A stretch of DNA of 64,000 bases from a phage. The notes beneath the pieces were generated by a model. The model ran no database searches. It saw nothing but the letters and a program-made list of their open reading frames with translations, and was not told the origin of the DNA. Where the stretch lies: the sequence record PZ452610.1. One strand, given 5' to 3'. Below are positions 4,705-35,244 of this stretch, piece after piece. Position numbers and translations under genes: made by a program. Every line of letters begins with the position of its first letter. The stretch's first letter is position 1.

Positions 4705-6918
4705 TTATTTGGCTGCTTCCACAGCCTTCATGAATTTAACGATTTGAGTGACCTGTTCTTTGGAAAGAGTACCACGTCGTCCCATGTATTCTGACACAAT
4801 ATGATAATTGGTTTCAAATTCAATAACCATTTTATCATCATAATCGTAAGCATTATCTTTAAGCTTATCGAAAATTTTAGCACACAATTCTAACTTCCTG
4901 TTCAGGTCTCTGTTATCAGCACCTGCGAATCGATTCCATCCCCAACGATTATTTACTGTTGAAAGTTTTGCAAAATCTTTACTGATTTCTTTGTTCTTAG
5001 AGCTAAAATACTTACTAAGGAAGTTAAGCTCTTCATTACGAGTAATATGATTCAAATAAGGCTGTGCTCTACGACTTGGTGATACATACTCATCATAATC
5101 CACTTTATCAATTAGCGTAATATAGTCATTAATTGATTTTTCGAACAAGCATTCTACTTCACCAAGTTTACGAACTTTCTTAGCAATCTGTGGGCGAACT
5201 ACAGTGAACTCTTTAATACCTGACAAATCGGCAATACGAGTCAAGAAATTAGAATCATAATTCAACCAACCTTTATCTGCGTCAAGACATTCAGCATTAG
5301 AACGATTACGAACTATAGCATAACCTTGGATTTCATCTGCTTCACTTGCCGGAATAAAGAGATCTTCTGATACCCAAACATCATTTTCATTCTTAAAGAA
5401 CCGATGAGCACTTGGGGATTTAGGACGAGGCTCATTAGTTCGTTTCCTGACTTCAATCCATGGCTTAACGATTTGTAAAAGCTCTGAAGTCTTGTACATG
5501 TTAATGTTGTCGCCATCAAAGATAACTTTAAGGCGTTCCAGAAGTTTCATTGCATCTTCGTCTGTAGGGTCAACGAATAGTACGCTTTTACCAAAACCAC
5601 GTGGAACTTTACCAGTTAATTTAACCTCGTCTTTAGACATTTCAATTGAATTAAGAGCTCGCATTAATGGAACGCGTCCCTTAACGTCGTCAATAACAAT
5701 TTCAACGTTTTTAATGTTAATGCCAATCAGGCTGTTAATTGAAATGGTTGATGATGAGCTACCACTTTCACGAATACGACGAAGACGAGGGGATTCAACG
5801 ATATCGTATACGACGCCAAGATTACACCACTCAGGCCCCATTTTAAAACGTTTGTACAACTCAGAATAAGTTAGTTGTTCTTTAGAGTATTTCAGTGATT
5901 CAATATTAGACCCGGCCTTTTCCATGTATTTACGAGCGGTATAGCCAAGAGAATCAATTTCACGGAACACATGACGTGGGTATTTACAATCAATCCATTT
6001 CTTAGAATCTTCAGCAAACAATTTAGCATCGATTTCTGCAACGCGTTTATGGATATTTGCTACTGTACGTTTATCAAATGACAATGCTTCACGAGACGGG
6101 GCTACATCTAGTTCACCCATAGGGAATTTAATATAAGCTGTAGTGCATCGCGTCATCATCCATGTTTGTTCTTTAATAACACTTCCGATTGGATATACAA
6201 TACCGCCATAAACAGCCATGATATTACCACGTTCACCCCATGGAGCTTCCTTGGCTAAATAAACATCATCGAATTCCGGGAAGTATTTGATATCTTTAAC
6301 ACCACGAACTTCTGCAATATCGCCGAGAGGACGCATAACATAAGCAATTTCGGATGCGAACTTTTCAAAATCTTCCGGGTTAACCGGTACAACTACTTCT
6401 ACACCCGTACGGTCATCAGGACCCATCTTATCTACAAAGGTCGGCTTAATTTGTGGACCTGTGTCATCTTGGTAGATTACGTAACCACGAACTTCACCGT
6501 TGTGATAAGACGTAAGGTTAAACGTATCAGTATATGCTAATGGAGCTTTAGAACCGAGTCCGAATCCACCAATGAAATCGTTACTCGATGTTTTAGTTGA
6601 AGCAAAATATGAGTTATAAATTCCTGGCTCTTCGTCATTACCTCGAATGGTGAAATCGCTCATACCAGGTCCAAAATCACGAACTACAAAACGTGGGTCT
6701 AAACGACCTGGAGCCTGAACAATAAACTTATCAGTGCAACCGTTAAGAATTTGTCCATCGATACAGTTTGTAATTAATTCACGTACACAAGCCAATTCTT
6801 TGTTTGTATAAAGGTCATTAGACAAAATCTTATAAACTTTGCTATTGCCTTGAATAGTGAATGCTGTGCTCTTACCGCCTGAACCAATAATCGTTTCTTT
6901 AGCCGTTTCAATAATCAT
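4705..6918 (-). CDS. rIIA: rIIA protein (GHKL-type ATPase domain)
   Basis: 737 aa; MIIETAKETI... N-terminus and ELITNCIDG N-box-like motif as in T4 rIIA. Confidence 0.85.
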   Translation of the reverse strand: MIIETAKETIIGSGGKSTAFTIQGNSKVYKILSNDLYTNKELACVRELITNCIDGQILNGCTDKFIVQAPGRLDPRFVVRDFGPGMSDFTIRGNDEEPGIYNSYFASTKTSSNDFIGGFGLGSKAPLAYTDTFNLTSYHNGEVRGYVIYQDDTGPQIKPTFVDKMGPDDRTGVEVVVPVNPEDFEKFASEIAYVMRPLGDIAEVRGVKDIKYFPEFDDVYLAKEAPWGERGNIMAVYGGIVYPIGSVIKEQTWMMTRCTTAYIKFPMGELDVAPSREALSFDKRTVANIHKRVAEIDAKLFAEDSKKWIDCKYPRHVFREIDSLGYTARKYMEKAGSNIESLKYSKEQLTYSELYKRFKMGPEWCNLGVVYDIVESPRLRRIRESGSSSSTISINSLIGINIKNVEIVIDDVKGRVPLMRALNSIEMSKDEVKLTGKVPRGFGKSVLFVDPTDEDAMKLLERLKVIFDGDNINMYKTSELLQIVKPWIEVRKRTNEPRPKSPSAHRFFKNENDVWVSEDLFIPASEADEIQGYAIVRNRSNAECLDADKGWLNYDSNFLTRIADLSGIKEFTVVRPQIAKKVRKLGEVECLFEKSINDYITLIDKVDYDEYVSPSRRAQPYLNHITRNEELNFLSKYFSSKNKEISKDFAKLSTVNNRWGWNRFAGADNRDLNRKLELCAKIFDKLKDNAYDYDDKMVIEFETNYHIVSEYMGRRGTLSKEQVTQIVKFMKAVEAAK

Positions 6919-6930
6919 ATTTTTCTCTCA

Positions 6931-7131
6931 TCACAAGTTACGTTTAAAAATTTCTGCTACTTCAAGAAGTTCTTCTTTAGTAGCTGTATCGGTTTGTATT
7001 TTATATCGAATTTCTTTAAAGCGTTCTTTAAAGGACTCTGCTGACTCGATATCAAAAAATCTTTGGATAAGCCGGAATTCCCGGAGCACTGCTTTATCAA
7101 AAAGTTCCAAGTCCACGTTATATGTTCTCAT
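6931..7131 (-). CDS. hypothetical protein (66 aa), rIIA.1 position
   Basis: ORF track; immediately upstream of rIIA. Confidence 0.5.
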   Translation of the reverse strand: MRTYNVDLELFDKAVLREFRLIQRFFDIESAESFKERFKEIRYKIQTDTATKEELLEVAEIFKRNL

Positions 7132-7154
7132 AATATTCTCTTCAGTAGATTCCT

Positions 7155-7206
7155 AGGGCACTATTACTAAAGACCATATAATCTATCATCTTATGTGTAA
7201 TAGTGC
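7155..7206. repeat. inverted repeat (11-bp arms, 29-nt spacer) between GT gene and rIIA.1
   Basis: GGGCACTATTAC ... GTAATAGTGCC; spacer contains TATAAT-like text. Confidence 0.4.
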
Positions 7207-7223
7207 CTCAGGCGATTCAGGAT

Positions 7224-8324
7224 TTACGCTGTGAAGATTTTATCCCACATCGCAACAACTGCATCTCGGTTATACTTCTTCCATACTGCTTCAGCACGTT
7301 TAACTCGAGCTTCGTATGTGTCAGTGAATTCTAATACAGCTTTTGTGTAAAGCGCAACTACTTCTTTCTTAGGAGTAGAGGAATCAATTTCTACACGCAC
7401 AGTATCTGGGTCGTATTCGAATGTCGCATGAGGATAATCCTTAAAAACTAACTGGATTACAGGGACACCTTTAGAGATGGCTTCAATAGAACTATTCTCT
7501 ACCGTACCTGTGTCAGGACACGTATTAATAAGTGCTTTAGCTGTTTTAAGACGTTCCATAATTTCACTGTGTGGAGCATCAATAATAACAGGATATTTAG
7601 CTGGTGGTGCCCATTTACTAGGACAGTATCCTGCACCATTTTCGCCTAGTGCTTTAATCGCTTCAAGAGCAACATCAGTACGACGCATTTTAGTGTCATA
7701 ACGTTGTGCACTAATAATCAGATCAGTCGCCGGAAGAACTTCAGGTTTCTCATTCAAACAAATAACCGGATAATCTTCGGCTTCAAACAACGGATTTGCT
7801 CGCCAATAATCATAATCAATTTTGTCAGTCAGACCTGAAGTCATATAACAATATTTACGTTCAAATTCACGGAAGGCTTTAGTAGGAGCATAACTCTTAC
7901 CACCATTCTTATGAATTTGAATAGTCTGGTCCCAAATTTGAACAATGCCACGAGATACCGGTTCAAACGGTGTTGCCATAAAATTCTTATGAACTTTAGA
8001 GAGACCTGCGTCTTTAATTGCCTGAACGGTTAGTTTAGTCGGTTCCATAGTAACAACGAAATCGTATTCATGGATGCCGGCTAGTTCAACAATCTTACGA
8101 GCCATAGTATAACTCATACCTAGACTGAATTTAGTCAGATGACCAACAGGATGATGATTAACCTTCCAATCACCAAATGTGTCATTATCAAAACCAATAT
8201 AATCAATATCGGCACCGATAGAAACTAAATATTTCAACACATTTAAATGTACTGCTTCAAGACCACCTTGTACACGGTCAGGATTAAATGGGACTGCACG
8301 AGATGGGATAAACATAACTTTCAT
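7224..8324 (-). CDS. putative GT-B fold glycosyltransferase (candidate DNA glycosyltransferase)
   Basis: 366 aa; C-terminal TGTVENSSIEAISKGVPVI resembles the GT4/GT-B donor-binding motif; sits where T4 has gene 60/mobA. Confidence 0.5.
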   Translation of the reverse strand: MKVMFIPSRAVPFNPDRVQGGLEAVHLNVLKYLVSIGADIDYIGFDNDTFGDWKVNHHPVGHLTKFSLGMSYTMARKIVELAGIHEYDFVVTMEPTKLTVQAIKDAGLSKVHKNFMATPFEPVSRGIVQIWDQTIQIHKNGGKSYAPTKAFREFERKYCYMTSGLTDKIDYDYWRANPLFEAEDYPVICLNEKPEVLPATDLIISAQRYDTKMRRTDVALEAIKALGENGAGYCPSKWAPPAKYPVIIDAPHSEIMERLKTAKALINTCPDTGTVENSSIEAISKGVPVIQLVFKDYPHATFEYDPDTVRVEIDSSTPKKEVVALYTKAVLEFTDTYEARVKRAEAVWKKYNRDAVVAMWDKIFTA

Positions 8325-8337
8325 AATTAAGCCTTAT

Positions 8338-8368
8338 TAAAATTAAAATGAAGCTCCCAAAGGAGCTT
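8338..8368 (-). terminator. hairpin plus U-rich tract after gene 39
   Basis: AAGCTCC/GGAGCTT 7-bp stem overlapping gene 39 stop, then cauuuuaauuuu. Confidence 0.4.
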
Positions 8369-10184
8369 AGGACATCCATTCTTTACGAAGTTCTGAATCA
8401 TCACCCAACAACATTTCAAAGAGTTCTTTCCAATTTTCAGGAAGTTTAACTACGTCGTACACAGGGTTCTGAATCATTTCACGATATTCTGACTTTTCAA
8501 GGGAGCCTAATCCCTTGATGTATCGAATACTATGCTTAGGCAGTGTATCTTTAACTTCTTCATACTCAGCTACAGTATAAAACCATTTTTGAGCTTTGCC
8601 AATTTGTGCAATAATTACAGGCGTTTTAACAAAGCGAATACGTCCTTGTTCAAACAATTCAGGCCAATTACTAAAGAAAGCAAGCAAAGCCGGATAGATA
8701 CTTCCAAGACCGTCGTGATCTGCATCAGTCATAATTGCAATATTACGATAGTTCGTATTCTCTGCCTTTTCACCAAGAATAAGACCTGTGATAGCACAGA
8801 TATCAAAGAGCTCTTTGTTCTTCATCATATCAGCATATGACATACCCCAGCTATTCATCACCTTACCACGTAATGGGAATCCGCCGTGTAGTTCACGGTC
8901 ACGAACATCAATGAGATAACCAATTGCAGAATCACCTTCTGTTAAGAACAATGTCGTATCTGCATCTTTACCACATTGGTTAGCTTTAATATGCTTATGA
9001 ACCTTAGCTTTAGTTGCCTTTTTAGCTGCTTTAGTTTCTGCAGCCTTTTCTGCTGCCAATTTACGAGCTAATGCTGCTTCAACAATAGGCATAATCAAGG
9101 CTTCGTTTTTAAGAAGTGCCTGAGCAATTTTCTTAGCATCTAATTGGATATGATTACGAATATCACCATACGTTGACGTTAAACGTTCTTTAGTCTGAGA
9201 ATCAAAACGCATGTTGCTCATGTCTCTAATAAACATCAACATTGTGAGGCATTCTTTAACACGAGCTTTAGTGACTTCAATACCCTTATATTTCTTTTTA
9301 ATACCCGGCAAAAGATGTTCGCAGATATCGTCCATTACACATTCAACATGATGACCACCATTTTTAGTATGGATGTTATTCACATAAGTTAAATGACGGA
9401 AGCCATCTGGTGATGTTGTGAATGCTATAGAGACTTTATCATTTTCTTGAATGATGTTATCTTCACCAAATTGTTTAGCAAATCGTTTAAAATTACCATC
9501 AACCTTTTTACCATTAAATGTGAACTTGATATCAGGATAAACGACTGCCAATGTTTGAAGTCGGTCTAAAGTAATATCTAAATAAATTTGAGATAAATTA
9601 TGCTCTTCAAATGAAGAGAAATCAGGAGTGAAGATTACTTTAGTGCCTTTACCTTTAGATTTCTTAGAAGACCATGATTTGTTTTCCATTCCGTTTGAAC
9701 AGTTAACAGTGATTTCATTTTCGCCATCTGACGTGATGCCTGTAAACAACGTAGAGAAGATATTAGTTAAACTACTCCCGACGCCGTTCATACCACCAGT
9801 CTTGCGTTCAGAATCATCGCCAAAGTTACCACCAGCTTTTGGAATAGTCCAGGCTGCTACAGGCCCAGGAATTTGTTCACCTGTTTGGTCGGTAACTAAA
9901 CCTTGAGGAATACCACGTCCGTTATCTTCCACCGAAACTTGATTATTTTTAATTTGCACATCAATTTTATTTGCAAACTTAAATGATGTACGAATAGCTT
10001 CATCAACCGAGTTGTCAATAATCTCATCGATTAATTTAACCAGACCAGGAACATATTCAACTTGTTGATATTTACCAAACAAAAAACGCTCGTGGGCTTC
10101 TTTGGCCGAAGAACCAATATACATGCCACTACGTTTCTTAATATGTTCTACATCTGACAGTACCTTAATTTCATTTTTAATCAT
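8367..10184 (-). CDS. 39: DNA topoisomerase II large subunit (GyrB-like), single 39+60 fused form
   Basis: 605 aa; MIKNEIKVLSDVEHIKKRSGMYIGS and IDNSVDEA GHKL motifs; length equals T4 gp39 plus gp60. Confidence 0.9.
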   Translation of the reverse strand: MIKNEIKVLSDVEHIKKRSGMYIGSSAKEAHERFLFGKYQQVEYVPGLVKLIDEIIDNSVDEAIRTSFKFANKIDVQIKNNQVSVEDNGRGIPQGLVTDQTGEQIPGPVAAWTIPKAGGNFGDDSERKTGGMNGVGSSLTNIFSTLFTGITSDGENEITVNCSNGMENKSWSSKKSKGKGTKVIFTPDFSSFEEHNLSQIYLDITLDRLQTLAVVYPDIKFTFNGKKVDGNFKRFAKQFGEDNIIQENDKVSIAFTTSPDGFRHLTYVNNIHTKNGGHHVECVMDDICEHLLPGIKKKYKGIEVTKARVKECLTMLMFIRDMSNMRFDSQTKERLTSTYGDIRNHIQLDAKKIAQALLKNEALIMPIVEAALARKLAAEKAAETKAAKKATKAKVHKHIKANQCGKDADTTLFLTEGDSAIGYLIDVRDRELHGGFPLRGKVMNSWGMSYADMMKNKELFDICAITGLILGEKAENTNYRNIAIMTDADHDGLGSIYPALLAFFSNWPELFEQGRIRFVKTPVIIAQIGKAQKWFYTVAEYEEVKDTLPKHSIRYIKGLGSLEKSEYREMIQNPVYDVVKLPENWKELFEMLLGDDSELRKEWMS

Positions 10185-28694: not shown

Positions 28695-29243
28695 TTAACG
28701 AGCCCATTTGATGATTTCTGTAATCAAATCATTACGTTCGCTTGCATTAAATCCTATAACTTTGTTAGCACCATCATGATTAAGTAATTGATACGTTTGG
28801 ATTTTGTTATGAATTGCAAACTCTTCAAAATGTGAAATGACTGTATTAAAACCGAATGAAGACAAAGTGATAAGGTCGTCTTCAAAACTTTCAGTCATTT
28901 CGTTACGTGTTAAAATAATTGTGAACACATCATGGTTTTGGCAAAGACGAACATAATCCTGTTCATAAACGTCAAGAACCGAGTCCGCATCTTGTCGAAT
29001 ACGTCCATAAACCCAGTTACTAATATATCCACGGTCTAACAGATAAATCTTAGTAGGGTCTAAATAATTCAACATCGTTTCGAAACAGCCAACTTCATTT
29101 CGAGACTTAACATCGAAACGTCCATCAACTGTTCGTTTAGGGAAATCAATCTTTACATATCTTTCACTAATTTCCATTATGTCATTAATGAAAGTTGTTT
29201 TACCAGCATTATCCGGGCCATCTACTAAAATAATTTTAGCCAT
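28695..29243 (-). CDS. P-loop nucleotide kinase (thymidylate-kinase-like)
   Basis: 182 aa; Walker A VDGPDNAGKTT typical of Tmk/dNK-type kinases; occupies the T4 beta-gt neighbourhood. Confidence 0.5.
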   Translation of the reverse strand: MAKIILVDGPDNAGKTTFINDIMEISERYVKIDFPKRTVDGRFDVKSRNEVGCFETMLNYLDPTKIYLLDRGYISNWVYGRIRQDADSVLDVYEQDYVRLCQNHDVFTIILTRNEMTESFEDDLITLSSFGFNTVISHFEEFAIHNKIQTYQLLNHDGANKVIGFNASERNDLITEIIKWAR

Positions 29244-29244
29244 T

Positions 29245-30144
29245 TTATTCCTCGATTACGACATCTTCATATTTAGGTATATTATACGGTGAAGAAATTA
29301 AAGCATTAAAGTAGATGAACTCACCAAGACCTGGATGAAATACTTCTTCAGGATTTTCGAAATATTGAATCTTCGGACGTCCTTTAAGAATTTGATAGTA
29401 CTCAGTTTTAGTTGGTTTAAAAATTCGAATCAACGCTTCTTCAGGATACTTATTTCTGTCGAAGCTATTATTTGGATCGGTTATATAAAGCGGTTGACCT
29501 AATTGAATTGCGCATTCAACAACTTGTTCAAAACGATAGCATGGGTCACTAATTCGAAATGGATGAAAAATACCATCTAGATGAATAGGAGCCAAATCAC
29601 CTACAAGACGCTGCATGATGGAAGGACGTATAACTTTCTGCGTTACGATAATCTTATTACCATCTGCACCTGCGTTAACCAGCACTTCTTTTTGACGTTC
29701 ATTCAACACAGTAGTTTGAAGTGAACGATTAACCGACAACATATCAGTTTTTAAGAATTCGTCAATATAAAAACGTGGTTTATTAGGGTCTGCAGTGATA
29801 TTGAAATTGAATTCCACATCAAAAGCGCCGTCATATCCAGTGATATCTGTGATTAAAAAATCACAATCATAATAAGCAATTAATGAATCAACAACAAATT
29901 CATTTTCAGACCAGAAATATTTACGAGTGTTATACGCGTTATCTTTATACCATAATGGAACAAACTTAAATTCTGGAAAAAGACGTTCGCATTCTTTAAT
30001 ATCAGATGCATTACGTGGATATGTAATCACATCACCCGGATTAGCACGGTGCAAATGAAGTTGGAAGTTGCCATCCTTAAGGATAGCATACTGTCCAGTT
30101 TCATAAGACCGCATACTCAAGATTGGTACGCGGAAAATAGCCAT
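29245..30144 (-). CDS. hypothetical protein (299 aa); positional replacement of beta-gt, possible GT-A-like DxD motif
   Basis: ORF track; LIAYYDCDFLITD resembles hydrophobic strand + DxD; not similar to T4 beta-gt. Confidence 0.5.
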   Translation of the reverse strand: MAIFRVPILSMRSYETGQYAILKDGNFQLHLHRANPGDVITYPRNASDIKECERLFPEFKFVPLWYKDNAYNTRKYFWSENEFVVDSLIAYYDCDFLITDITGYDGAFDVEFNFNITADPNKPRFYIDEFLKTDMLSVNRSLQTTVLNERQKEVLVNAGADGNKIIVTQKVIRPSIMQRLVGDLAPIHLDGIFHPFRISDPCYRFEQVVECAIQLGQPLYITDPNNSFDRNKYPEEALIRIFKPTKTEYYQILKGRPKIQYFENPEEVFHPGLGEFIYFNALISSPYNIPKYEDVVIEE

Positions 30145-30860
30145 TAGTCAAGGAATCCTTTAACATAATCAAAATCACGTTCAAACACATGGGCACTTAC
30201 CATGGTATGAGTATAATCACCAACTTCTACCCCACATTCGTTAGCGATATAATGAAGTAATTTTCCTTGGAGATAAAAATCCAACTGCATAACAACAGCA
30301 CAGTTCTGAGAACGCATATGACAGTGGGTATAAAGCTTACCATCACGAATATAATAAGTCACTGAGTCAGTACATGGATATTCAAGCGTTTCGTCCGAAT
30401 CAAGCAAAGCCTGATCAGAACTTTCTAGAATTTGGAACACAACTCTTCGAGAGTTAGGCTTCTCTTTAAGTTCTTTTAGAAGAGCTGGTAATTGGGCCGC
30501 AATGCGAGGACCATAGAAAGTGTTGAAGTTCGCCGGCAAAACATCTGATTTTGGTTTAGAAATAAATTTAGCGACATTAGGATATGCCTTAAACGCTTCT
30601 TCTGCGTTGGTACCACCAGAAATCATAAACTTCCAGAAGTCTTCGGCATATTCATAAGAGATGCGGTTAATACGTGGGTCGGTCATTTTGAATGATGATG
30701 GAGTGTCAACAACTACTGTCATAGACCCAATTTCATTACAACGTCCAATACGAGAATCAGTTACGAATTCCGGGTTTTCTAAAATTTCACGATTGACTGC
30801 TTTAAATGCGGTTTGAAAATCTGCGGCTTTGATATATTTCATTGTGTTATGTTTTCCCAT
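30144..30860 (-). CDS. 42: dCMP hydroxymethylase (thymidylate synthase family)
   Basis: 238 aa; catalytic Cys in EYPCTDS; T4 position. Confidence 0.85.
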   Translation of the reverse strand: MGKHNTMKYIKAADFQTAFKAVNREILENPEFVTDSRIGRCNEIGSMTVVVDTPSSFKMTDPRINRISYEYAEDFWKFMISGGTNAEEAFKAYPNVAKFISKPKSDVLPANFNTFYGPRIAAQLPALLKELKEKPNSRRVVFQILESSDQALLDSDETLEYPCTDSVTYYIRDGKLYTHCHMRSQNCAVVMQLDFYLQGKLLHYIANECGVEVGDYTHTMVSAHVFERDFDYVKGFLD

Positions 30861-30879
30861 GTTTACCTCAATACAATTT

Positions 30880-30903
30880 ATTATATACTCAATTCGTAAA
30901 GCT
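30880..30903 (-). promoter_or_regulatory. MotA-box-like middle promoter upstream of gene 42
   Basis: Minus strand AGCTTTA, 11 bp, TATAAT. Confidence 0.35.
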
Positions 30904-31142
30904 TATTTGAATTTCTTGACAATGTTGATATAACGTAAAGCTTCAGCATCGATACTTCCAAGAACACTATGAAGAAATGCATCAGCGTAGTATTCCAATT
31001 GAACAGGTTCTTTAATCACTTTAGCCGCTTTAGTTTCAAACAGGCCCATCAGGGCCTTTTTAAGAATTTGTTCGTTGCTGTTAATTTTCATAGTCAAAAT
31101 CTCTTCATTAAGTTGGTGGTTAAAAGTTTTTCTAGAAATCAT
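30903..31142 (-). CDS. hypothetical protein (79 aa)
   Basis: ORF track; ATGA-coupled to upstream 386-aa ORF. Confidence 0.45.
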   Translation of the reverse strand: MISRKTFNHQLNEEILTMKINSNEQILKKALMGLFETKAAKVIKEPVQLEYYADAFLHSVLGSIDAEALRYINIVKKFK

Positions 31143-32299
31143 TCCGGGTACCTCAAAGCGTCATCAGAGTTAGTTATATCAATAATAGATATAGAGTTTT
31201 CTGCTAACCCGTTTTTAGATAATTGACGTTTATAATATCTTTCACAATATGTACACGTCGTCCCGCAGATTTCATTAGCACAATCGAAATCTGGATGTCT
31301 GAACCACCTTTTTTCTAAAAAGCCATCTAACAAAGAGGTTTCAATATTTACTGTATGTGAAAACTCAGTTTCGTTTTCAAGAGTGAAAATAGTCTCTAAA
31401 GGCTTCCACAGTTCTAACAAATTACCTTCAAACTTTTCAGAAGCGTATGCTTCAAGAACTTTCAAAATGTAGTCTGTGCTACCTGTACGTCCTGAAACTT
31501 TGAATTGAGTGATACCAATATCATTATAAAGTTTCAAATCTTGAGGACGAACAAAACGAGTTCTCAACCAGTTAAATGGGTCTGTATCACGAGCTTTAAT
31601 ACAGTGCTGCATAGGATATCCGTTTAAGGATTTAGCATCATCAGCTGTAACATCAGTACTATGGAAAATATAGCAAGAGTCACGATAGCTACAATGTGTT
31701 GTATACCCTTTACCAGCATTAGAACAGAACTCATTTACAAGAACTTCAAATATTATATTGTTCTTATTGCAAAACTCTGCTGCACGCTTCAGGAAAGAAA
31801 CTGAACGGTTCTTATGAATTCCACAGCAGACCTTTTTGATATTATACTGGTCATGCAAGTATTTGATTTGAGTTACAGCATCGACATGTAGAATTGTTGA
31901 AACTTCAATCTCAATGTCTTTATTGACTTCACGAACAATTTCCATAACAACAGGGTTAGCGATAGTAATACGCCATACGCCTATTGACCAAAGATACTGA
32001 ACATAATCCTGAATAGCTTTCTTCTTCCACCCAACTAGTTCTCTTTTTGAACCAGGATTTATCGTGTTGAGTGTATAGTTAAAGCAAATACCTAATTCGT
32101 TACAACGTTTAACGTAATCTTCTAACATCTTTTTGTCAACGTCAGGAAGCCTAAAATCAGGTCTGGCTGCTACAAAAGCCATTTCTCTTGTAGAGCCGTA
32201 TACTTCGTTTATCAAGCTATTAGGATAAGTTTTATTGAGCTCTACGATTTTATCAAGAAGAGCTAAATCAAAATTCGTTCCAATTTTAAAAGTATTCAT
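31139..32299 (-). CDS. hypothetical protein (386 aa) with C-terminal Cys cluster, part of sugar cassette
   Basis: Track start is GTG; first in-frame ATG at 32297-32299; C-terminal CANEICGTTCTYC plus internal EFCSNAGKGYTTHCSYRDSC. Confidence 0.55.
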   Translation of the reverse strand: MNTFKIGTNFDLALLDKIVELNKTYPNSLINEVYGSTREMAFVAARPDFRLPDVDKKMLEDYVKRCNELGICFNYTLNTINPGSKRELVGWKKKAIQDYVQYLWSIGVWRITIANPVVMEIVREVNKDIEIEVSTILHVDAVTQIKYLHDQYNIKKVCCGIHKNRSVSFLKRAAEFCNKNNIIFEVLVNEFCSNAGKGYTTHCSYRDSCYIFHSTDVTADDAKSLNGYPMQHCIKARDTDPFNWLRTRFVRPQDLKLYNDIGITQFKVSGRTGSTDYILKVLEAYASEKFEGNLLELWKPLETIFTLENETEFSHTVNIETSLLDGFLEKRWFRHPDFDCANEICGTTCTYCERYYKRQLSKNGLAENSISIIDITNSDDALRYPE

Positions 32300-32355
32300 T
32301 TTTTTGCATCTCACGTTAATTGATGCGATGGTTTTTGCAGGTCTTACTTAAATTA

Positions 32356-32742
32356 TTATAGATTCGGTTTATATGATTTAAATGTTTCGAATTCGCCTTT
32401 ATTCATAAGAGCTTTGAATTCGTCAGGACGCATAGCTTTGTCGTCGATAATCCAATCATATACTGGTTTATGTGTTAGCAAATTATGGTACTTCAAACCA
32501 ATGTTTTCCAAGTTCTGAATCAGACTTGGGAGAATGTCAATTGCTATACGACCAGGACCTACTGACTTCATACCGCGAGCAGTGTAAAGCGTTATGGTAT
32601 GCCCTGCATCATACAGGGCATTAATAGCAGTCACCATTTCGACGTCTGGTTTGAAGTTCACGTAATCACGATTGTTATTCCACTCTGTTATACAATCATC
32701 GACATCAAAACAAAGATTAAGCATGTTTTCTACACGGTGCAT
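32356..32742 (-). CDS. HAD-superfamily phosphatase (small)
   Basis: FDVDDCITEW is HAD motif I (DxD); TAATG overlap with upstream gene stop. Confidence 0.55.
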   Translation of the reverse strand: MHRVENMLNLCFDVDDCITEWNNNRDYVNFKPDVEMVTAINALYDAGHTITLYTARGMKSVGPGRIAIDILPSLIQNLENIGLKYHNLLTHKPVYDWIIDDKAMRPDEFKALMNKGEFETFKSYKPNL

Positions 32743-34427
32743 TAGATTCGTTCCCATTGATGAGTGATATCGCCACCGATTGGACGATAAGAAACACCAG
32801 TTTCTTTATCAGTTAGTACCCATTTACCAGGATTTTTTGTAATCAGAGTAGCCGTTACAGGTTCTGCTACGTCATAACTAATAGAGCCGTCCTGAAGTAC
32901 ACGGCCCATGTTACGTAATTGCTTAGTCAGAAGTTCCATACCTTTATAATATGCGGCTACCGCTTTAAGTGGATTATTCTTGAAATAACCACCTAATGCA
33001 ATCCAGATAATTGCTACAGCCAAATGATGATACTCGTTAAACGAACTCATCTTTCCATATTTGTAAACTAATGGATTGATGTTAATAGTCACATTACAAG
33101 TTGTTTCGTCAATAGTAAACTGTCCCCAGGTCGGATTAGCGTTGAATTCATCATAACCTGAAACAGCATAAAGCACTTTAGCTTCATCATACAATTTTGG
33201 CCCGTAAATCTTGGTTTCGCCAAAATATCCACGAGGGTCGATAAACTTGACTTCGCCGTTATCAGTAATCATAGTATTACTGAAGTTCGGGTCACCGTGA
33301 ATAACAGAGTACTGTCCCTGAGAACGGGTATGATAACGAATAAGATGTTCTAAAGCTTGCTTCAGCATTGGCTTCAGACGTCCAATCTTAGTGTAGTTCA
33401 CGTGTGTGATTTTACCAAATGAATCAATCAATGGCTGAATGCTTTCACAACGATCAATAACTTTCGTATAGAACTCTTTAGTGAAATCACGGCGAACAGT
33501 TTCAGGACTTACAAAATAAGTGTCTGTGCTGAATTTCAGTGCATCTAAAATTGCATCAACAATTTGTGGACGAGCAAGACTTGATTTGGATTTAATATAT
33601 TCAAATGCTGGCTTACCTTTAATACGTTCCATTTCAAAATTATTTTCATTTACCGAAACTAACTGAGGAACTGAATCTGATTTCACTTTCAAATACCATG
33701 AAATCTCATCTTTTTGAAGAGCTCGACCTTGTTCGGTTAACGCGAATTTAGTTACAGTTTCTTCGCCAATTTCAACTGCATTAAAACTACGATTAAGTTC
33801 ACGAACTTCATGAGCTTTTTCAAGTTTAGGCATATCACCTAAATCAATTAGATTCATAAGCTCTGATTTATTGAATGCACTGCCGTAAAGGAATTCTACG
33901 AAATCACGTCCTTTGCAGTATTCATGAATTTCCTCATCAGTAGAACCCATGTAGAATTCCCAGTCTTTGAACTGATAAATTCCTACAACATTACCGCCTG
34001 TTGAACCTACGTTAGTGATATTTTCACCATCGAAATTATATCGACATTCATCACCCTTAACATAGATTGCGTTAACATTCCAAGACCATGAACCAAAATC
34101 AGGAATAATATCACACCAGTTAACAATTACGTTATGGCCATCTAAATCTTTGTATAATTTAGCAAGAGCATAAGCAGAACCATACGCTTCATCAACTGTA
34201 CGAATAGTCACATTGAACCCTTCTTGCTCGCAATAAGCTCGAACAGTTTCAGCAAATTTTGAATGAACTACTACAATAATTTCATCTGCGCCAAGGTCAG
34301 AATAAATTGTATACAAATTGCTCAGAATAGTGTCTTGTTTATAGTTAACAAGAACTTTTGGAATATGATGCGTTATTGGATACAAACGAGTTGCCAGTCC
34401 AGCACCAAGAATAACAGCTTTTTTCAT
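32742..34427 (-). CDS. bifunctional sugar-1-phosphate nucleotidylyltransferase / APH-like sugar kinase
   Basis: 561 aa; N-terminal VILGAGLATRLYPITHHIPKVLV (RmlA/GalU/MurU-type NTase); C-terminal HGDPNFSNTMI...KFIDPRG (APH/choline-kinase-like catalytic loop). Confidence 0.7.
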   Translation of the reverse strand: MKKAVILGAGLATRLYPITHHIPKVLVNYKQDTILSNLYTIYSDLGADEIIVVVHSKFAETVRAYCEQEGFNVTIRTVDEAYGSAYALAKLYKDLDGHNVIVNWCDIIPDFGSWSWNVNAIYVKGDECRYNFDGENITNVGSTGGNVVGIYQFKDWEFYMGSTDEEIHEYCKGRDFVEFLYGSAFNKSELMNLIDLGDMPKLEKAHEVRELNRSFNAVEIGEETVTKFALTEQGRALQKDEISWYLKVKSDSVPQLVSVNENNFEMERIKGKPAFEYIKSKSSLARPQIVDAILDALKFSTDTYFVSPETVRRDFTKEFYTKVIDRCESIQPLIDSFGKITHVNYTKIGRLKPMLKQALEHLIRYHTRSQGQYSVIHGDPNFSNTMITDNGEVKFIDPRGYFGETKIYGPKLYDEAKVLYAVSGYDEFNANPTWGQFTIDETTCNVTININPLVYKYGKMSSFNEYHHLAVAIIWIALGGYFKNNPLKAVAAYYKGMELLTKQLRNMGRVLQDGSISYDVAEPVTATLITKNPGKWVLTDKETGVSYRPIGGDITHQWERI

Positions 34428-34468
34428 GTTGTGGTCCTCATTGGTAAGTAGGTGTATTGTACACTATT

Positions 34469-34612
34469 CTAGTTAAAGCATTCATACTTTGCTTGTAGTC
34501 CAATCATAATCCATCCAATTACAAGTGTTGGAATCATTACTGGAGCCGTTAAGCTCCAGTAGATAGTCATGACAAGCATCAATAGTAAAAGTCCTATTGT
34601 TATTGCTTTCAT
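34469..34612 (-). CDS. small membrane protein (47 aa)
   Basis: Sub-threshold ORF MKAITIGLLLLMLVMTIYWSL...; ATGA overlap with SIS gene stop. Confidence 0.35.
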   Translation of the reverse strand: MKAITIGLLLLMLVMTIYWSLTAPVMIPTLVIGWIMIGLQAKYECFN

Positions 34613-35244
34613 TGTTCGCCTCGTAACATGGCACCTAGTGCACCGCCTGGATGGAACTTAAGAAAGTCATTAGAGGTAAATCCACGTTCAGACGAAAGGT
34701 TGATAGCAAACGTATCGATAAGCGCTAACAACAATGTAGTGGACATAGTCGGAGCCAGAGAATTCTCATCAACCTCTACCGCGATGCCTGTACAGAAAGA
34801 GTAATCAAAAAGGGCTTCATTTTCTTGCGGAATGTCTGGGTTACAATGCAACAGAATCTGTTTGACATTTGGACGAATCATTTTAAGATGCTTAGCCACG
34901 CCTATCATTTCTTCAGTCTTACCAGAACGACTAATATGAATCAACACATCATTAGGCGCAATGAATCCTGCATCACCGTGAGAATAATGCCCAGTGTTCA
35001 AGTACATACTCGGGATACCGAGTGAAGCAAATGTCTCAGAAGCTTTAGTTGCAATATTAGCATTCTTACCAACACCTGTAATAATTACTCGGCTTTCATA
35101 ATTACTAAGTCCAGGGCGTCGAAGAGTTTCTAGAATAGCATTATAACGAGCAGGGTTTTGACTAATTACTTTGGCCATAGCGGCCAAAGAAGAAGCTTGT
35201 TTTATGATTGCGTCAATAGCGATAGTAATAGGAGTAGTTTTCAT
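34609..35244 (-). CDS. SIS-domain sugar-phosphate isomerase (KdsD/GutQ-like arabinose-5-phosphate isomerase, no CBS domains)
   Basis: 211 aa; GVGKNANIATK...HGDAGFI...LIHISRSGKTEE...FHPGGALG parallels the KdsD SIS domain. Confidence 0.7.
   Translation of the reverse strand: MKTTPITIAIDAIIKQASSLAAMAKVISQNPARYNAILETLRRPGLSNYESRVIITGVGKNANIATKASETFASLGIPSMYLNTGHYSHGDAGFIAPNDVLIHISRSGKTEEMIGVAKHLKMIRPNVKQILLHCNPDIPQENEALFDYSFCTGIAVEVDENSLAPTMSTTLLLALIDTFAINLSSERGFTSNDFLKFHPGGALGAMLRGEQ

Follow-up and report, generated by a model that had tools for sequence, protein, structure and literature searches.

The 366-aa open reading frame (ORF) at positions 7224..8324 (minus strand, ATG start) of the 64,000-nucleotide stretch of phage DNA analysed here (record PZ452610.1, hereafter the window) most probably encodes a UDP-sugar-dependent GT-B transferase of the RB69 gp3 family, which would add a second arabinofuranose (Araf) to arabinosylated 5-hydroxycytosine (5hoC) in phage DNA. 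We place this reading at a probability of roughly 0.78. The product is the orthologue of RB69 ORF003c/gp3 and of the HY126 glycosyltransferase (PDB 9iqz/9ir0), and may be described as a putative second (beta-1,3) DNA arabinofuranosyltransferase. The transferase is already known, having been predicted in 2018, deposited as a structure in 2025 and proposed for its pathway role in 2025-2026; the present work holds no new biology, and its interest lies in the fact that a function known already was re-derived correctly from sequence alone.

The Gene and Its Genomic Position

The ORF has exactly the coordinates, strand and ATG codon given in the initial annotation. A Shine-Dalgarno-like AAGG can be read from the sequence 7 nt before that codon (8332..8335, minus strand), and the G+C content of the region is 0.37-0.41, with the ORF the same as its neighbours. 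These neighbours, all on the minus strand, are a 66-aa rIIA.1-like ORF (6931-7131), followed by rIIA (737 aa, 4705-6918), and, on the other side, gene 39 for the large subunit of topoisomerase II (605 aa, 8367-10184). The ORF is a real gene rather than a chance reading frame, because it has a full-length match to PHROG 8302, occurs in 212 phage records and corresponds to a 99%-identical protein that has been crystallised.

The initial annotation had placed the gene in the slot held in T4 by gene 60 and mobA, correctly so, since the corresponding interval of T4 contains rIIA.1, 60, 60.1, mobA and 39. In T4 an insertion carrying a translational-bypass element divides the large subunit between genes 39 and 60, whereas in the window it is encoded by a single, unsplit ORF of 605 codons (8367-10184). 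The synteny check proposed for RB69-like genomes returned the same neighbours in Bas46 and HY126: The order of rIIA.1, transferase and topoisomerase large subunit is common to the window and both phages, and the same order has been described for Mosigvirus elsewhere (PMC13390438). Bases 6900-8400 of the window are 100% identical to Escherichia coli O157 typing phages 3, 6, and 13, and show 95-99% identity with approximately 150 other Mosigvirus (RB69-like) genomes. In the record of Bas46 (ChristianSchoenbein), the gene bas46_0103 is called 'putative hmC-arabinosyltransferase'.

Sequence Relatives of the Transferase

PHROG 8302, annotated as 'unknown function', matches residues 1-366 of 366 with an E value of 5.9e-223, and the product is 98-100% identical to the proteins of JS09, HY126, and the Bas46 region; by sequence, it belongs to the RB69 ORF003c/gp3 - HY126 glycosyltransferase family. 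A sequence search of the PDB retrieved at 99% identity the entries 9iqz, entitled 'phage HY126 glycosyltransferase', and 9ir0, 'phage HY126 glycosyltransferase with UDP', both released on 2025-07-16 according to Foldseek. The five differences from the crystallised protein (N56T, Y160H, G164A, A231V, and S315F) are conservative or peripheral. These entries and those of a ThyA-like enzyme, 9iqc/9ir2/9iqu, appear to form one deposit series, which we infer to be that of He et al. 2026 on HY126.

The protein has no Pfam family match even at E<=10 and no NCBIfam model; no significant profile match was obtained to CAZy GT4 or to Pfam Glycos_transf_1 (PF00534), Glyco_trans_1_4, and Glyco_transf_4, and distant family members gave weak, sub-threshold GT4 matches (GT4-conflict 0.0028, Glyco_trans_1_4 0.013). 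The family HMMER profiles A1 and A2, run against PDB sequences, reached only 9iqz and no GT4 structure. [quoted passage not shown] The ORF product is also without sequence similarity to a 299-aa protein of the window that is discussed below.

Searched with a profile, 1.84 billion representative proteins yielded 11 representatives, and the family is therefore small and phage-restricted; a word-indexed database of 5.8 billion sequences held 5-6 clusters of it, and a scan of IMG/VR found nothing beyond the known Mosigvirus and Acinetobacter lineages. Metagenomic sequences P0007-P0012 represent at least five further lineages, mutually 35-41% identical and seen in metagenomes only, with nothing closely related in 50,697 records of sequenced phages; likewise, nothing close to the uncultured P0008 and P0009 was found among cultured phages. 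The most distant member found, P0015, with approximately 20% identity, lies on a phage-like contig (L012 10001-11110, Logan contig SRR24908209_33372) and is surrounded by HMUDK_hel (5-hmdU DNA kinase), ADDT, and AdoMet_dc domains, all characteristic of clusters for thymidine hypermodification. Because of these neighbours, relatives of the transferase may serve other DNA hypermodifications.

A separate observation concerns Shigella phage JK45, which is classified under Tequatrovirus despite carrying the Mosigvirus gene. It has a full gene and, directly downstream, a 411-bp partial 3' copy (L013 1694-2104; MK962757.1 2520-2930), to be explained by a partial duplication in tandem or else by an error of assembly.

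Fold and Donor Binding

The AlphaFold model considered here was built on an alignment of 14 sequences and replaced a poor run with five (pLDDT 66, N-terminal domain below 50). It has two Rossmann-like beta/alpha/beta domains and a C-terminal helix that returns to the N-terminal one, as in GT-B enzymes, and it superimposes on the HY126 structure with a TM score of 0.97, so the fold recognition suggested in the initial annotation does return a GT-B glycosyltransferase. Binding of UDP is documented by 9ir0, the complex of the 99%-identical HY126 protein. The best fold matches are GT4 enzymes acting on lipids, lipopolysaccharide (LPS), and small molecules.

Residues G20, R208, R214, E276, and E281 are invariant, or nearly so, across the family. 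The C-terminal segment singled out earlier as typical of donor-binding domains is indeed present, as E276-N-S-S-I-E281-A-I-S-K-G-V-P-V-I290, with E276 nearly invariant and E281 invariant; their spacing is E276-x4-E281, the canonical GT4 motif being E-x7-E. In the alignment of Thomas et al., G20, R207/208, and E281 fall on residues of T4 alpha-GT that bind phosphate and ribose, E281 corresponding to the conserved ribose-binding glutamate (PMC6024577). In the C-terminal domain R208, R214, and E281, and in the N-terminal domain the G20-G21 loop, sit where donor-binding residues are expected, and would contact the nucleotide sugar there.

The Arabinosyl-5-Hydroxycytosine Cluster

The genome that carries the 366-aa ORF also encodes a 5-hydroxy-dCMP synthase and the genes for UDP-Araf synthesis. 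They form, on the minus strand at 28695-35244, a complete cluster for the biosynthesis of arabinosyl-5hoC, which adjoins the DNA polymerase gene and lies approximately 21 kb away from the transferase gene in Mosigvirus; in Acinetobacter phage DLP3, both family members, gp76 and gp77, are inside the cluster. The thymidylate-synthase homologue (30144..30860; Pfam Thymidylat_synt, near-identical to PDB 9iqc/9ir2/9iqu, E 8e-161) is the 5-hydroxy-dCMP synthase that supplies the 5-OH attachment point, an activity shown for its RB69 orthologue (PMC13326640). The roles of the following proteins are taken from the same work (PMC13326640), including its Table 1 for the first: a 182-aa nucleotide-kinase-like protein of the RB69 gp45 / DLP3 gp78 type (28695..29243, 46% identical to DLP3 gp78); a 133-aa HAD-like phosphatase of UDP-Araf synthesis, of the RB69 gp51 / HY126 AfhF type (32356..32757, 60% identical to DLP3 gp81); a 561-aa bifunctional nucleotidyltransferase and kinase of the RB69 gp52:53 / HY126 AfhE type, which makes the donor UDP-arabinofuranose (32742..34427; Pfam NTP_transferase and a weak kinase match); and a SIS-domain arabinose-5-phosphate isomerase of the RB69 gp55 type (34609..35244, Pfam SIS). 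A U32-family protein is encoded within the same cluster and strand.

The remaining member is the 299-aa protein (29245..30144, minus strand), the orthologue of RB69 gp46:47 and 99.3% identical to ORF046c/047c, which has been proposed as the first (base-proximal, alpha) arabinosyltransferase (PMC13326640). It bears no Pfam or NCBIfam signature. Its homologue in DLP3 had no arabinosylation activity alone in vitro (PMC13326640), and that of Thanatos, TH1_063, 47.5% identical, was reported to make UDP-xylose from UTP and xylose-1-P in vitro, that is, to behave as a UDP-xylose pyrophosphorylase (PMC12838424). Because of this latter activity the identity of the first transferase is not secure; in view of both results, the function of the 299-aa protein is less settled than annotations suggest.

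Published Chemistry of the Modified DNA

Thomas et al. 2018 reported arabinose in RB69 DNA and predicted that ORF003c, of 366 aa, is an arabinosyltransferase with a GT-B fold (PMC6024577). Lee et al. 2026 (NAR) then established that the modified base of RB69 is 5-hydroxycytosine, not hydroxymethylcytosine (hmC), and that the DNA contains mono-arabinosyl and beta-D-Araf-(1->3)-alpha-D-Araf forms, whereas the DNA of DLP3 has a third Araf, beta-1,5-linked (PMC13326640). The same paper gives RB69p003 (gp3) the putative label 'beta-arabinosyltransferase 2' and names gp46:47 as the first transferase; in its in vitro assays with UDP-Araf, RB69 DNA received a third Araf from DLP3 gp76 and gp77 together, each alone being inactive (PMC13326640). 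In phage NP, mono- and di-arabinosylated dC occur in a ratio of 1:4 (PMC13390438).

This chemistry revises one part of the initial annotation, in which the ORF was a candidate transferase for a non-glucose sugar acting on hmC-containing DNA: The GT-B enzyme and the non-glucose sugar stand, with an arabinose pathway now supported, but the acceptor needs to be corrected from hmC to arabinosyl-5hoC.

Bas46 and Bas47 are doubly arabinosylated, as reported. Bas46 deleted of 'the arabinosyltransferase Aat' is reportedly sensitised to a plasmid-borne defence. In the usage of Mahler et al., 'Aat' is said to denote the transferases whose added arabinose gives the double and triple forms; if so, the Bas46 deletion would be a direct test of the present gene. 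No activity assay of the Mosigvirus protein itself was found in the literature covered; He et al. 2026 and Mahler et al. 2025 may report one.

Which Sugar Does the Transferase Add?

The main argument that the 366-aa enzyme extends the sugar chain rather than starting it is that the number of family copies in a phage equals the number of its extra sugars. Thanatos, with no copy, has mono-arabinosylated DNA; RB69, NP, and Bas46/47, with one, have mono- and di-arabinosylated forms; DLP3, with two, has the tri-arabinosylated form. By tblastn, the ORF003c family is present in 212 phage records, essentially of Mosigvirus and Acinetobacter T4-like phages, with one copy in the former (>=95% identity) and two in the latter (~42% identity). 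The same search found the 299-aa protein in 349 phage records, which encompass Mosigvirus, Dhakavirus, and phages of Klebsiella, Enterobacter, Edwardsiella, Yersinia, Pectobacterium, Serratia, Proteus, Providencia, Shewanella, and Acinetobacter.

Over its full length, the ORF product is 43% identical to DLP3 gp77 and 41% to gp76. Orthology to gp77 was considered as an argument for the second step and rejected: In a neighbour-joining tree, gp76 and gp77 arise by a duplication within the Acinetobacter lineage and the Mosigvirus protein falls outside it, with 88% bootstrap support, so that orthology cannot assign step 2 rather than step 3.

The 366-aa protein might instead place the first arabinose on the modified cytosine, as in the 2018 proposal of 'the' ara-hmC transferase. 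ORF003c was the only GT-like protein that Thomas et al. 2018 could detect in RB69, and the alternative enzyme, the 299-aa protein, is weakened by its missing domain signature, the inactivity of the DLP3 homologue on its own and the pyrophosphorylase activity of the Thanatos homologue. Yet approximately 137 phage records have the ThyA-like/299-aa cluster and lack the family altogether, among them the arabinosylated Thanatos (Serratia phage LC53 likewise has no member); the family copy number follows the extra sugars and not the presence of the modification, and the DNA on which the DLP3 homologues act already carries arabinose. We consider such a primary role quite unlikely. It is very improbable, besides, that the target is other than DNA, namely a glycolipid of the host envelope, LPS, or a protein. 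The closest structural relatives, PimA, WaaG, and BshA, would fit such targets, being lipid, LPS, and small-molecule GT4 enzymes, as would the detachment of the Mosigvirus gene from the modification cluster; however, the family is found only in phages with the arabinosyl-5hoC cluster, lies inside it in Acinetobacter phages, has homologues (gp76 and gp77 together) that modify DNA in vitro, and even its most distant relative found, P0015, belongs to a DNA-hypermodification cluster.

Another explanation retains the pathway and modifies the mode of action: The protein would be a DNA arabinosyltransferase that is not self-sufficient at the second step, because it requires a complex (for instance, one formed with the 299-aa protein) or functions as an obligate oligomer, or else has a different regiochemistry or step. 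That DLP3 gp76 and gp77 are active only together, with the Mosigvirus protein as outgroup to both paralogues, speaks in its favour, as does the succession of an alpha and a beta linkage from one donor by enzymes that are both GT4-like. Against it, Mosigviruses have a single family member and nonetheless carry the di-arabinosyl product on ~80% of their cytosines, and crystals with UDP were obtained from the protein alone. This explanation appears unlikely; since the DLP3 proteins work only as a pair, the lone 366-aa enzyme may, by analogy, be insufficient or need a partner.

Proposed Mechanism and Stereochemistry

In the preferred reading, that of a second-step arabinosyltransferase, dC would be replaced by 5-hydroxy-dC, which the ThyA-like enzyme (30144-30860) would produce at the mononucleotide level, while the cluster genes at 32.3-35.2 kb would provide UDP-D-arabinofuranose. 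The first transferase (29245-30144) would place an alpha-Araf on the 5-OH. The soluble 366-aa enzyme would then bind UDP-Araf in its interdomain cleft, flanked by the two Rossmann-like domains, and, acting on DNA rather than on nucleotides, attach another Araf at O3 of the sugar already present, giving beta-D-Araf-(1->3)-alpha-D-Araf-O5-dC at most cytosines. The longer glycan would be a better shield of the DNA from host nucleases and other DNA-targeting defences.

In mechanistic terms, this scheme creates a puzzle. With a single UDP-Araf donor, a first linkage that is alpha and a second that is beta, one of the two transferases must invert, and the fold neighbours of the 366-aa protein are retaining enzymes. 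Either the protein inverts, although its scaffold is of the retaining type, or inversion falls to the base-proximal transferase, with UDP-beta-D-Araf as the donor; either case would provide the first structurally defined furanose elongator of a DNA glycan, a proposition that we regard as doubtful.

Expression Signals

The initial annotation had remarked that no clear early promoter precedes the ORF, and the scan agrees: The 42-bp gap between gene 39 and the transferase gene contains a 7-bp hairpin alone and no promoter. Sigma-70-like matches are not enriched in the region, with 10 found versus 13.4 expected in shuffled sequence, and consequently no dedicated promoter is claimed for the gene. 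The hairpin, AAGCTCC-TTTG-GGAGCTT (8351..8368, minus strand), a terminator-like match of the scan, overlaps the stop codon of gene 39 and is followed by CATTTTAATTTT, an interrupted T run. Its RNA folding energy of -13.4 kcal/mol (z = -0.87) is unexceptional, and it could at best be a weak terminator-like or mRNA-end element.

The nearest convincing promoter for the transferase gene lies upstream of gene 39, at 10233-10207 (minus strand), where a pattern search found the MotA box TTTGCTTTA, a 12-nt spacer, and TAGAAT preceded by TGA; from its consensus, we take it to be a middle promoter of the T4 type. The simplest model is that the 366-aa gene is probably transcribed at early or middle times by read-through from gene 39, as the initial annotation suggested, starting at this promoter.

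Two further elements were noticed nearby. A GC-rich hairpin at 10249-10234 (minus strand) stands directly before the middle promoter, and the T tail of this terminator is the start of the MotA box TTTGCTTTA. Between the stop codon of the transferase gene and rIIA.1, an 11-bp inverted repeat, GGCACTATTAC ... GTAATAGTGCC (7157-7207, minus strand, 29-nt loop), has inside it an extended -10-like TGATAGATT at ~7188. This repeat might act in termination or as a processing hairpin, might hold a promoter of rIIA.1, or might do both.

Significance and Comparison with Known Systems

Arabinosylated 5hoC is a recently characterised hypermodification of phage DNA. Many restriction enzymes are blocked by it, as are, according to published work, some CRISPR-Cas systems; how many arabinoses the DNA carries appears to tune the set of defences that the phage escapes or triggers. 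The transferase gene probably encodes the accessory enzyme that sets di-arabinosylating Mosigvirus apart from its mono-arabinosylating relatives, and therefore it matters for host range in phage therapy, for the sequencing and cloning of these genomes, and as a possible tool enzyme.

Among known systems, RB69 ORF003c/gp3 (NP_861693.1), the HY126 protein, and Bas46 bas46_0103 are the same 366-aa gene in the same slot, 98-100% identical, and the HY126/RB69 gp3 protein has the same fold with no functional distinction. DLP3 gp76 and gp77, designated beta-arabinosyltransferases 2/3, belong to the same arabinosyl-5-hydroxycytosine pathway and have in common with the 366-aa protein the invariant G20, R208, R214, and E281. 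In DLP3, however, they constitute a lineage-specific duplicated pair inside the cluster, both needed for the third sugar, whereas Mosigvirus has a single gene, at a distance from its cluster, and two sugars at the maximum. The bacterial GT4-type retaining GT-B enzymes, such as sucrose-phosphate synthase (6kih), BshA (6n1x/3mbo), PimA (2gej), WaaG, and tetrahydrobiopterin glucosyltransferase, are only 10-14% identical to the protein and differ from it in having E-x7-E where it has E276-x4-E281, as well as in its proposed acceptor, a DNA-bound sugar. T4 alpha-GT (GT72, 1y6f/1xv5) and beta-GT (GT63, 1c3j) rank below approximately 35 bacterial GT4/GT5/GT20 enzymes in fold similarity and, unlike the 366-aa protein in its proposed role, transfer glucose onto the hydroxyl of hmC itself. 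A parallel in logic is the beta-glucosyl-HMC-alpha-glucosyltransferase of T2/T6, which makes gentiobiosyl-hmC and is likewise a second transferase extending a sugar on a modified DNA cytosine; its product, too, is a disaccharide in which the first sugar is alpha-linked and the second is joined to it in beta, as summarised in PMC6024577. The two systems diverge in their substrates, T2/T6 using glucose from host UDP-Glc on hmC, and the proposed Mosigvirus enzyme a phage-made UDP-Araf on 5hoC.
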